Source of the DNA: an uncultured Ignavibacteriaceae bacterium
GTDB taxonomy: Bacteria > Bacteroidota > Ignavibacteria > Ignavibacteriales > Ignavibacteriaceae
NCBI GenBank assembly: GCA_964625575.1
Contig: CAZVBQ010000017.1
Coordinates: 7,628 to 71,627 of the forward strand
DNA: 64,000 nt
Direction: 5' to 3'
How positions within the stretch are numbered: position 1 is the first letter of the stretch; every line of letters starts with the position of its first letter. The translations under genes and the position numbers were made by a program. Positions 2,007 to 2,357 of the stretch are shown here, piece by piece. The notes under the pieces are model-generated. The model searched no databases and had not been told where the DNA came from. It worked only from the letters and a program-made list of their open reading frames with translations.

Positions 2007-2357
2007 AGTGGTCAGTAGCGAGTGGCGAGTAGCGAGGGATCGTTGCCCGTTACCCGTTGCCCGTTGCCCGCTTGCCACTTTGCGGGTTCGGTAGCGAGTG
2101 ACGAGTGGCGAGTAGCGAGGATTAATAAACCGCAAAGAACGCAAAGGATTTCTTTAAGTTTACGCAGATTACACGCTTGCCCCTGCGGGGGATTTAACGC
2201 AGATTCCGCGGATTTATAAGAACACGGATACACACAGATATCACGGATAGACGCAGACAGATTTATTTTATCAGCGTTAATCCGCGTAATCTGTGTGTAT
2301 CGGCGTCCTGAATAACATTTAACACCTTACATTTAACATTTCACGCAGCAGTCACAT
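2007..2357. repeat. Mosaic short-word repeat block: AGTRGCG heptamers, GTTRCCC heptamers, NNCGCAAAG nonamers, CRCRGAT words and their complements, ACATTTAACATTTCAC module
   Basis: Tandem words read directly: GTAGCGAGTGGCGAGTAGCGAGG at 2013-2037 and again at 2090-2120; GTTGCCC/GTTACCC x4 at 2042-2076; ACCGCAAAGAACGCAAAGG at 2127-2147; perfect 13-bp inverted repeat GATACACACAGAT 2227-2239 / 2289-2301. Modules recur at 46316, 47873, 50602, 56326, 59932 and 63786. Confidence 0.65.

Follow-up and report, generated by a model that had tools for sequence, protein, structure and literature searches.

Short-word arrays, in part organised as foldbacks, in the gene gaps and some reading frames of an uncultured Ignavibacteriaceae bacterium: a variant of a known but unexplained kind of bacterial repeat

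Introduction

What occupies the gaps between bacterial genes when these hold no obvious promoter? The question is raised by a stretch of 64,000 nucleotides (nt) from an uncultured Ignavibacteriaceae bacterium (assembly GCA_964625575.1, contig CAZVBQ010000017.1, positions 7,628 to 71,627 of the forward strand), which was analysed as a whole and is called the window here. Many of its gaps are filled with degenerate words of 7-9 nt in short tandem arrays, and blocks of such arrays recur along the window. The block at 2007-2357, for example, lies in a 356-nt gap between two convergent genes, one encoding a Peptidase_S46 protein (79-2001, + strand) and the other a GatD-like asparaginase (2358-3758, - strand). 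The original prediction, made by reading the sequence, held these blocks to be a mosaic family of intergenic, long imperfect palindromes of a kind that it did not recognise.

The blocks are a variant of a known, unexplained kind of repeat, and not a new kind of system. The explanation that we favour, at roughly even confidence, is that they are fast-evolving DNA of the short tandemly repeated repetitive (STRR) or long-simple-sequence-repeat type, organised as foldback arrays and tolerated wherever a stop-free, folded insert is harmless. The evidence comes from the number of arrays and their relatedness, from their architecture, position and turnover, and from comparison with metagenomic and viral contigs.

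Number and relatedness of the arrays

Arrays were defined as merged hits of Tandem Repeats Finder (TRF) with a period of 7-10 and at least 2.8 copies, and 50 dinucleotide-preserving shuffles of the window served as the control. By this definition the window contains 19 arrays, compared with 0.4 +/- 0.6 expected (a maximum of 2 among the 50 shuffles), and TRF recovers them at the coordinates that the first reading had assigned. Period 7 is dominant (12 of 18 arrays in a stricter TRF pass) and at least nine distinct canonical heptamers are represented. The word CGCAAAG occurs 26 times, compared with 9.6 expected, and the hairpin core CCGCC-N2-4-GGCGG four times, compared with 0.16 expected, all four inside blocks. 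Seventeen of the 19 arrays fall inside the 7.8% of the window that was first masked as non-coding, and the other two are in a linker of the aconitase gene. This mask wrongly took in 46300-46487, and hence three arrays of the citD gene (46317-46346, 46352-46381 and 46454-46484). Judged by the reading frames, five of the 19 arrays, at three loci, would be translated, and the remaining 14 are outside coding sequence.

Alignment shows that blocks at separate loci are related. One module is shared by 2007-2080, 56326-56402 and the left arm of 46310-46390, and another by 2214-2312 and 50640-50735. The original prediction had matched 2013-2076 with 56331-56400 and 2127-2312 with 50602-50735; both matches are recovered in this form and, together with the excess of arrays, they bear out its view of one related, non-chance family with ordered shared modules. 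The paralogous copies within the window have diverged, with about 70-76% column identity.

Four independent metagenome contigs from different samples cover 1.5-18 kb of the window, arrays included, with 99.8-100% identity and 0 gaps. This excludes an assembly artefact as well as hypervariability of the blocks at that time scale. An origin in chance low complexity or in faulty assembly, in favour of which only the short length and degeneracy of some arrays can be cited, is refuted by the count of 19 arrays against 0.4, by the four identical assemblies and by the homologous modules at separate loci, and we give this explanation practically no weight.

All eight differences between the window and one of these contigs, the 18.2-kb L001, are found within 30 nt (window 48588-48617, L001 10393-10422). 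The cluster sits at the edge of the aconitase array, where two linker residues are altered (PS to TK), and it might reflect either a local hotspot or a patch of conversion. Exact-protein look-ups gave no match for two open reading frames (ORFs) of the window and a match for a third.

Architecture of the blocks

The blocks have two architectures. In type A, an array of a word is followed by a loop and by an array of the reverse-complement word, while in type B a direct array is split by a small GC hairpin. Type A is found at 46310-46390 (AGTAGTG / CTCRCYACT), 47868-48032 (NN-CGCARAG, with six words per side), 50598-50768 and 2214-2312. All four loci have folding z scores of -8 to -10 on both strands, those of 2214-2312 being -8.9 and -10.3. 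In the nonamer hairpins the 7-nt words pair and the 2-nt arm spacers mismatch, so that the stem is a string of 7-bp helices between small internal loops. Type B is found at 29854-29897, 48609-48680, 56487-56632, 59932-60051 and 63786-63835. Its hairpin is 14-15 nt long (TCCGCC-N2-3-GGCGGA or CTCGCCGCGGCGAG) and the same word resumes on either side. Taken alone, 29845-29900, 48605-48685 and 63780-63840 fold no better than shuffles (z 0.2 to -2.0; about 0 to -0.6 for the first of them). The regions 56450-56632 and 59895-60051 do beat shuffles (z -3.7 to -6.6), each including a canonical terminator hairpin. Thus, the statement that an array is typically followed by its reverse complement describes about half of the blocks, those of type A, but not the rest, which are direct arrays with a mini hairpin. 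Likewise, the long hairpins ascribed to every block are supported at the four type A loci but not at the three loci that fold no better than shuffles.

Some blocks are nested. The block at 47868-48032 reaches the stop codon of the aconitase gene (48036) on one side and, on the other, a point 17 nt before the start codon of PrpD (47855). Its inner and outer copies share even their unpaired NN spacers, and the arm copies are shifted by 45 and 36 nt, numbers that are each divisible by 9; this in-register duplication fits slippage or unequal exchange. The block at 50598-50768, flanked by the stop codon of Iso_dh (50772) and by the start codon (50590) of a gene for a protein of 181 amino acids (aa), holds one element in the loop of another. 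Nesting in loops and the dispersed paralogous modules indicate that whole units are also copied.

Other blocks differ between the strands. The 119-nt region 2007-2125 reaches -51.2 kcal/mol (z -3.2) with 12 G-U pairs as + strand RNA, compared with -29.9 kcal/mol (z -0.2) for the - strand; it folds only as + strand RNA because the CGUUGCC:GGUAGCG pairing needs two G-U pairs per word. At 56454-56632 the sense RNA folds at -71.9 kcal/mol with 11 G-U pairs, compared with -61.5 for the antisense RNA, and at 59899-60051 at -52.8 kcal/mol with 12 G-U pairs, compared with -33.9. For 56326-56412 the values are -27.1 (+ strand) and -14.8 kcal/mol (- strand), neither of which is better than shuffles.

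Two 3' untranslated regions (UTRs) contain a near-identical bidirectional terminator (AAAAAAGGCCACCNTTNCCGGNAGCCTTTTTT) followed by (G/A)TGTTAGGTGTGA, at 56454-56502 and 59899-59946, which suggests that the terminator is itself part of a dispersed module. The form of an intrinsic terminator, a GC hairpin with a T run, is seen only at 56454-56486 and 59899-59931; the arrays and mini hairpins have no T runs. The ACATTTA/TAACATT word that closes the block at 2007-2357 recurs at 59930-59960, where its orientation with respect to transcription is reversed. The features of all blocks are collected in Table 1.

Table 1. Arrays and blocks of the window, with positions counted from its first nucleotide
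Position	Strand	Feature	Remarks
2007-2125	+	AGTRGCG, CGTTGCC, then second GTAGCGA array	Begins 5 nt past Peptidase_S46 stop codon (2001)
2014-2036		AGTRGCG array (TRF unit AGTAGCG), x3.3	TRF
2041-2076		CGTTGCC array, x5	TRF
2091-2119		GTAGCGA array, x4.1	TRF
2126-2213		Half CGCAAAG element (AAACCGCAAAGAACGCAAAG; two CGCAAAG nonamers), then CGCAGAT/CGCGGAT words flanking mini hairpin CCCCTGCGGGGG (2180-2191)	
2214-2312		Copy of the CRCWGAT palindromic element, CRCRGAT words	99 nt; 39-nt arms, 77% complementary
2313-2357		ACATTTA/TAACATT heptamer array	Abuts stop codon of GatD-like gene (2358, - strand)
2313-2341		TAACATT array, x4.1	TRF
29854-29897		Direct ATCRCTC array split by mini hairpin TCCGCCGCGGCGGA (29877-29890)	Ends at stop codon of outer-membrane efflux gene (29898)
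46316-46382	-	AGTAGTG / CTCRCYACT palindrome inside citD, predicted to encode SSEKRVASGENSSLLTTENSLL	Hairpin z -8 to -9
46453-46486	-	AGTRGCG array, predicted first codons of citD, encoding MSSESRVASGED	Translation; alignment of relatives
47868-48032		Nested CGCARAG nonamer foldback; inner element (~47916-47992) within outer copy	z -9.7 and -8.8
48609-48680	-	Sense strand: (CTTCAGC)x3, hairpin TCCGCCGCAGGCGGA, (CACCCTT)x4	Aconitase interdomain linker
50598-50768		CGCAAAG nonamer foldback as outer arms; CRCWGAT element (50635-50735) nested in loop	z -8.6 and -9.7
56326-56412	+	AGTGGYG array, then GTTGCSC array	Module order as in 2007-2080
56454-56632	-	CACAGTT/CATACTT/GTGAAGG arrays; mini hairpins 56503-56517 and 56606-56619; bidirectional terminator 56454-56486	3' UTR of adhesin-like gene (stop 56633)
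59899-60051	-	ACTCCAC, CATACTT and AAATGTT arrays; mini hairpin 59985-59999; terminator plus TGTTAGGTGTGA module	3' UTR of MarR gene (stop 60052)
63786-63835		Degenerate CGCAAAG words around small hairpin GTCCCTTTGGGAAAG	Upstream of gene starting at 63771; folding not significant

Two neighbourhoods in the window stand apart from the blocks. The GatD-like gene (Asparaginase domains and GatD_N) adjoins a GatE-like gene (GatB/GatE catalytic domain, 658 aa), the two together covering 2358-5712 on the - strand. We take this pair to be an archaeal-type Glu-tRNA(Gln) amidotransferase, a system that one would not usually expect in a bacterium that encodes a sorting domain of the type IX secretion system kind nearby. 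The stretch 36000-38600 has a lower GC content (0.44) and holds a tRNA gene (37225-37298, - strand), a gene resembling the AbiEi antitoxin (37512-38168) and small ORFs without a Pfam match; possibly it is an element that has integrated beside the tRNA gene.

The CRCWGAT element

One subfamily, built on the word CRCWGAT, has a short form of which five copies are exactly 72 nt long, with inverted ends AATAGAAC / GTTCTATT and a mean column identity of 88%. A covariance model was built from these five copies with a hand-defined symmetric structure and searched against 1.3 Mb of Ignavibacteria and Melioribacter loci, where it found about 26 distinct copies, several per locus. In the window it matches 2227-2301 (E 9e-6) and 50635-50735 (E 2e-4). 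In the resulting alignment, which was fitted to the model and includes both strands of each palindrome, paired cells make up 86.5%, compared with 82.3% in shuffled and 26-38% in slid controls, and 16 of 25 pairs are changed on both sides, compared with 9.5 +/- 1.4 expected, and 0 of 500 shuffles reach that number.

The orientation of the element relative to the operon is about even (about 14 versus 10). The flanks of 12 copies show no visible target-site duplication, and a BLAST search of plasmids with the 72-nt consensus gave no match. Among the metagenome-assembled genomes (MAGs) with the element are some that have been assigned to Ignavibacterium album and to Melioribacter roseus, species of which type strains are in culture. 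Octamers of the AACAGTT type were found only in loci resembling Ignavibacterium album.

Position and turnover

The position of the blocks follows a simple pattern. In all the window gaps read, every block lies 0-5 nt from a stop codon and its far end is 8-90 nt before the next start codon. None of the window's three divergent promoter gaps contains a block, and two of its three convergent gaps are filled by plain terminators.

A scan of genome contigs with PrpD puts the window within Ignavibacteriaceae, and the nearest genome by this measure is the complete MAG CP129491.1 (L005), with 91% protein identity and a syntenic operon. The gap between the aconitase and PrpD genes is only 8 nt in this genome, versus 180 nt in the window, where it holds a CGCAAAG block. 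No blocks were found in the orthologous spacers of CP129491.1 that were read, which contain ordinary sequence and one short TAACTGA array (x2.9, L005 7397-7417) upstream of a conserved gene for a 177-aa protein. This suggests that the turnover of the blocks is fast. The original prediction had proposed orthologous spacers in relatives as a check, and the outcome is mixed: the nearest genome is without blocks, yet module order is shared within the genome and the CRCWGAT element is conserved across Ignavibacteria.

The gap that follows the PrpD stop codon, between the PrpD and citD genes, was compared at 80 loci of relatives and contains changing fillers of many word families. In Ignavibacteria and their relatives these include the CRCWGAT palindrome, palindromes of AATTGTT octamers, palindromes of the form TGTCATTGCGA...TCGCAATGACA, GTCATTC decamers and ATGTTGA heptamers. 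At this place, ordinary terminator-like sequence is found instead in most Zixibacteria and other GC-rich relatives. The TGTCATTGCGA...TCGCAATGACA family has inner arms GAAGCAATC / GATTGCTTC and follows the PrpD stop codon in L014, L021, L032 and L079 (all Ignavibacterium-like); three of these four loci (L014, L021 and L079) also have a nested GC hairpin such as CCCGATGGAATCGGG.

The 181-aa protein (50045-50590, - strand), whose gene follows the nested block at 50598-50768 and lies between the isocitrate/isopropylmalate dehydrogenase-like and aconitase genes, has no Pfam match. Its position is kept in relatives, where it has 177 aa (L001 and L005).

Arrays within CitD and aconitase

All blocks had been described as intergenic. 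This is incorrect for 46316-46382 and 46453-46486, which belong to citD, and for 48609-48680, which belongs to the aconitase gene, as all three are read in frame in the predicted proteins. The TGA of PrpD (46490-46488) is followed by one base and then by the only in-frame start codon of citD, an ATG at 46486-46484; given this position, the array at 46453-46486 would encode MSSESRVASGED. The second citD array corresponds to a loop, SSEKRVASGENSSLLTTENSLL, flanked by the conserved motifs RSDCWIEI and KSKVGSLYG. The loop is 23 aa long in the window versus 13 aa in an alignment of 19 relatives. The predicted CitD protein contains the peptide SSEKRVASGENSSLL. In CP129491.1, another low-complexity insert of 40 residues (TLGNGATAGSNSNTGNTANSSGNAESPDRHNSAGNNDISV) occupies exactly the same site (L005 11640-11850). 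To judge from these alignments, the CitD loop seems to be a place where inserts repeatedly land or expand.

In aconitase, 48609-48680 would encode LQPSAFSPPQADHPSPFTLHPSS, in the linker between the Pfam domains Aconitase and Aconitase_C. Protein and DNA alignments show that the linker of relatives has unrelated sequence and is 5-8 residues shorter. The gene calls on the metagenome contigs run through the arrays in both CitD and aconitase, and two of the in-frame inserts yield the same predicted peptide, SSE[KS]RVASGE. The arrays are thus predicted to add real residues to at least two enzymes of this organism. Because they are stop-free and gene callers read straight through them, it is advisable to check the start codons and "linkers" of such genomes.

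Arrays beyond the lineage and the polarity of their arms

Similar arrays are widespread. A scan of metagenomes for three CGCARAG nonamers returned at least 120 contigs with a GC content from 32% to 73%, and a scan of viral contigs for three AGTRGYG heptamers returned at least 120 matches with 27% to 74% GC. Two scrambled heptamers, used as a control, gave 70 and 62 viral matches. Since scrambled heptamers are also frequent in viral contigs, word sharing alone is weak evidence of homology, and it was dropped as proof of homology across phyla. The specific features are the mirrored arrangement and the conserved flank of CGCARAG only. Among the CGCARAG matches listed, about 40% have a foldback, and the flank has A at -2 in 88 of 116, C or A at -1 in 102 of 116, a purine at +1 in 101 of 116, and T at -5 and -4 in about 60%.

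CGCARAG foldbacks occur in Gemmatimonadota and Bacteroidota, and cyanobacterial plasmids hold single arms. Replicons of Gemmatirosa kalamazoonensis have CGCARAG elements at 28 and 15 places; the 28 places are on its plasmid 1 (L205, 72% GC), where the elements are foldbacks with the ends TTTCAC / GTGAAA. The same ends are found on a foldback of Bacteroides finegoldii (L206 4990-5140), between a gene for a major facilitator superfamily transporter and pheS. With their housekeeping genes, the Bacteroides "plasmid" records resemble pieces of chromosome. The 1.5-kb contig L157 (36% GC) has two CGCARAG foldbacks, at 200-460 and 780-1040, in which the loop and right flank are almost identical and the left-arm words differ; here the loop is more conserved than the arm. 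A comparison of the CGCARAG foldback with phage genomes gave one weak match, and Rfam none on 20 loci with such foldbacks. Clustering of the ORFs next to the 120 metagenome matches listed showed no recurrent protein family. A long-open-frame test of the coding status of these matches was non-discriminating in GC-rich contigs.

The two arms of a mirrored pair are not equivalent, since the G-rich arm is almost always 5'. Among the matches listed, the counts for the two orders are 60 versus 0 for AGTRGYG and 39 versus 7 for CGCARAG, and when all mirrored TRF pairs are taken, 83 versus 2 at viral loci and 17 versus 8 at metagenome loci. For mirrored pairs of unselected words the counts are 38 versus 10 (two-sided sign test, about 6e-5, on pairs that are non-independent because of shared contigs). 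Solo arrays show no bias between the sense and antisense strands of the flanking genes (16 versus 17). This lack of bias suggests that the polarity points to a directional copying step, and not to selection on the transcript, and the polarity would then record how the second arm arises. The same counts of solo arrays give no support to selection against exposed C-rich RNA, as in Rho loading, which was considered as a source of the polarity.

The viral contig L215 (IMG/VR 3300047586_000106, 10 kb) has a heptamer foldback at every gene junction examined in 356-6448. A junction consists, in order, of a stop codon, GC, (AGTGGYC)n, a loop, (GRCCACT)n, GC and an ATG, and this arrangement matches that in the operon of the window. 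No Shine-Dalgarno sequence is visible between the hairpin and the ATG at these junctions.

Origin and possible roles

If the blocks are fast-evolving repeat DNA, their history may be pictured as follows. Words of 7 nt, among them AGTRGYG, GTGAAGG and CATACTT, or of 9 nt (NN+CGCARAG, NN+CRCWGAT) would amplify in register. An inverted copy of the array would then be added such that the G-rich arm lies 5', giving hairpins of 60-170 nt that consist of 7-bp helices with small internal loops, and whole modules would be copied elsewhere, sometimes into the loop of another element. Such DNA would persist only where a compact insert that folds on itself and lacks stop codons is tolerated, namely right after stop codons, between the cistrons of an operon, between convergent genes, and in frame in permissive protein segments; between cistrons, the hairpin would bring the stop codon and the next start codon close to each other. 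Slippage and fold-back copying are the probable generating steps, and persistence is probably for the most part neutral or selfish. A side effect on mRNA like that of repetitive extragenic palindromic (REP) sequences, such as 3'-end protection, processing, insulation or stop-start proximity, is plausible in view of the position of the blocks and the conserved pairing.

Several observations weigh against this reading. There is no copy-number polymorphism between the window and the four metagenome contigs, and the 0 gaps among them imply that slippage is infrequent over this span of time. In its short form, the CRCWGAT element keeps its length, ends and sequence across families of Ignavibacteria. 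Among the matches listed, the flank of CGCARAG (TTTMAC before, RAA after), for which there was no selection, is kept across contigs of 32-73% GC, and an inverted partner is found within 150 nt of 60 of the 122 AGTRGYG arrays, versus 1 of 42 and 1 of 41 for the scrambled words. Moreover, the asymmetry of G-U pairing favours the sense RNA at 2007-2125, 56454-56632 and 59899-60051, and the antisense RNA at 47868-48032 and 50598-50768. The constancy of the 72-nt element, the CGCARAG flank and the word-specific mirroring would suggest a sequence-specific factor, either an enzyme or a binding protein, or a function; they speak against a model of neutral slippage alone and keep explanations of both kinds alive.

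A function could be that of a selected, cis-acting RNA: a protector of 3' ends, a processing site of the RNase III type, or a stop-start spacer that couples termination to reinitiation. Blocks that extend from a stop codon to shortly before the next start codon, the viral junctions without a visible Shine-Dalgarno sequence, and a hairpin element in the same operon spacers of many Ignavibacteria all fit such a role, as do the two-sided changes that keep the CRCWGAT pairing and the three blocks that fold better as sense RNA by means of G-U pairs. However, the nearest relative has no blocks in the same operon and manages with an 8-nt gap between aconitase and PrpD, the CRCWGAT element has no preferred orientation, two strong hairpins fold better antisense, and elements are also found in coding sequences and convergent gaps, where coupling is irrelevant. 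Selected RNA is a tentative and somewhat unlikely explanation. A mobile origin is, in our view, unlikely. The blocks would in that case be non-autonomous elements of the kind of miniature transposable elements with inverted repeats (MITEs) or REP-derived hairpins (REPINs), with an enzyme encoded elsewhere that recognises the arm words and cuts or copies the elements, comparable to foldback transposons or to REP sequences and their REP-associated tyrosine transposases (RAYTs). This would account for the defined inverted ends, constant 72-nt short form and several copies per locus of the CRCWGAT element, for nesting in loops (47868-48032, 50598-50768 and L123), for the loop and flank shared by the L157 copies, for a CGCARAG flank conserved across phyla and for the mirroring of specific but not scrambled words; in-frame insertion into genes is also known from the palindromic elements of Rickettsia (PMC10969869). 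On the other hand, no target-site duplication is visible at the ends in the flanks read, the window copies are too diverged to be recent, and the arm copies are displaced by multiples of the word length, which is what slippage predicts. A scan of 30 window ORFs found no transposase-like Pfam family, RAYT-like ones included, nor is such a gene recurrent beside the 120 listed loci.

The blocks could also be arrays of sites bound by a protein, as in operators or iterons (for example, by a ribbon-helix-helix protein on heptad arrays), or by a nucleoid protein. This would explain the fixed period of 7 or 9 bp, the coexistence of direct and inverted arrays, and the conservation of the word with a free 2-nt spacer; in L069, AATCACG heptads are directly upstream of a start codon. 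We consider this very improbable, since at least eight unrelated words in one 64-kb window would need many proteins, the three divergent promoter regions are avoided while sites lie in 3' UTRs, convergent gaps and coding sequences, and compensatory changes preserve the pairing rather than the word. A broader proposal reaches beyond the lineage. AGTRGYG heptamers and TTTMAC-flanked CGCARAG nonamers could belong to a cross-phylum class of word-array foldbacks of which the window would be one local sample, made or maintained by a conserved, directional and sequence-aware process that always puts the G-rich arm 5', serving as structured stop-to-start spacers of zero length in bacterial operons and phages and able to enter proteins in frame; this is rather improbable. 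Mimicry or complementarity of the words to the 3' end of 16S rRNA was also considered, as some contain GGTGA or GGATCACC, and was dropped because their orientation to genes is inconsistent.

Comparison with known repeats

The first reading found no known kind of repeat for the blocks. Mixed intergenic assemblages of tandem heptamers that are absent from close relatives have, in fact, already been described in Cyanobacteria, Beggiatoaceae and Bacteroidetes (PMC4679880, PMC4692102). The assemblages of MacGregor are intergenic, occasionally genic, missing in close relatives and without an assigned role, and the heptamer TAACTGA is abundant in Beggiatoaceae, Cyanobacteria and some Bacteroidetes (PMC4679880). 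Inverted pairs of heptamer repeats have been noted in Xanthomonas (PMC4692102).

The window resembles STRR sequences in its over-represented head-to-tail heptamers, which form several families per genome, are mostly intergenic, lie near start and stop codons and occasionally occur in ORFs. The gaps of close relatives are likewise shorter and without repeats, some pairs are inverted, and the nearest genome, CP129491.1, carries TAACTGA x2.9. In contrast to STRR sequences, the arrays of the window are short (3-5 units) and degenerate, about half of them have a mirrored partner and form long hairpins in which the G-rich arm is 5', words of 9 nt (7 conserved and 2 free) are as prominent as heptamers, and modules follow a fixed order. 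The classical STRR words, which are said to be CCCCAGT, TTGGTCA and CAACAGT, are not among the TRF arrays of the window. To our knowledge, tandem heptamer repeats have been known in bacteria since 1990 and have no accepted origin or role. STRR or long heptamer repeats were reportedly treated by Mazel in 1990 and by Mrazek in 2007, and type B blocks are said to resemble the small dispersed repeats of Nostoc treated by Elhai in 2008, a resemblance that is not used as evidence here. A literature search gave no description of such repeats in Ignavibacteria (Ignavibacteriota), and a search for the word arrays as literal strings gave nothing relevant.

The exclusion of classical REP sequences and bacterial interspersed mosaic elements (BIMEs), enterobacterial repetitive intergenic consensus sequences and short palindromic repeats that are clustered and regularly interspaced (CRISPR) was sound, as the blocks have no GTAG-headed unit, no spacer-repeat structure and no Rfam match. 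In the window, Rfam recovers only the tRNA at the gathering score, and the blocks give sub-threshold matches to generic hairpins. REP sequences, BIMEs and REPINs are like the blocks in being dispersed imperfect palindromes of 3' UTRs and intercistronic gaps, motif mosaics with rapid gain and loss that form hairpins in mRNA (PMC3116915, PMC2817692). Unlike REP sequences and REPINs, the blocks have no 20-40 nt GTAG-headed unit, their arms are tandem words, they contain GC hairpins of 14-15 nt, and they break the strictly extragenic rule, as three are, on their reading frames, translated. The Pfam family of RAYT, a Y1 transposase, is not among the 30 window ORFs scanned. The likeness to MITEs, terminal inverted repeats and a constant length, concerns the CRCWGAT subfamily only (five 72-nt copies); the flanks of 12 copies lack a visible duplication, and no transposase is a neighbour in the 30 window ORFs or at the 120 listed loci. 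CRISPR repeats are 25-40 nt long with unique spacers of similar length, in contrast to the contiguous 7-9 nt units of the window.

Foldback transposons of Drosophila have long inverted arms of short tandem repeats; they are eukaryotic, of kilobase scale, and in some cases have a known association with a transposase. The building of arms from short tandem repeats is common to both, but there is no evidence of transposition for the blocks of the window. The palindromic elements of Rickettsia are similar in that palindromes are translated in frame in unrelated metabolic genes (PMC10969869), here by prediction twice in CitD and once in aconitase. This is a likeness in behaviour only and relatedness is not expected; the host is another one, the inserts of the window are 30-70 nt of heptamers rather than about 100-150 bp, and most copies in the window are extragenic. 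The tandem repeats of Borgs also evolve fast, are both intergenic and genic, and add disordered segments to proteins; unlike the blocks, they are perfect direct repeats with genic units divisible by three, and are neither mirrored nor built of heptamers (PMC9879509).

Implications

As a variant of a repeat kind that is known and still unexplained, the blocks add two rules to it. The structural rule is that the G-rich arm is 5' in mirrored arrays, a polarity for which any mechanism must account. The positional rule is that blocks run from a stop codon to the next start, and may also enter permissive loops of proteins. For annotation, this is a warning that gene callers pass straight through stop-free arrays. 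If the type-strain genomes carry the CRCWGAT element, testing of its transcripts and of deletions may be feasible in cultured Ignavibacteria.

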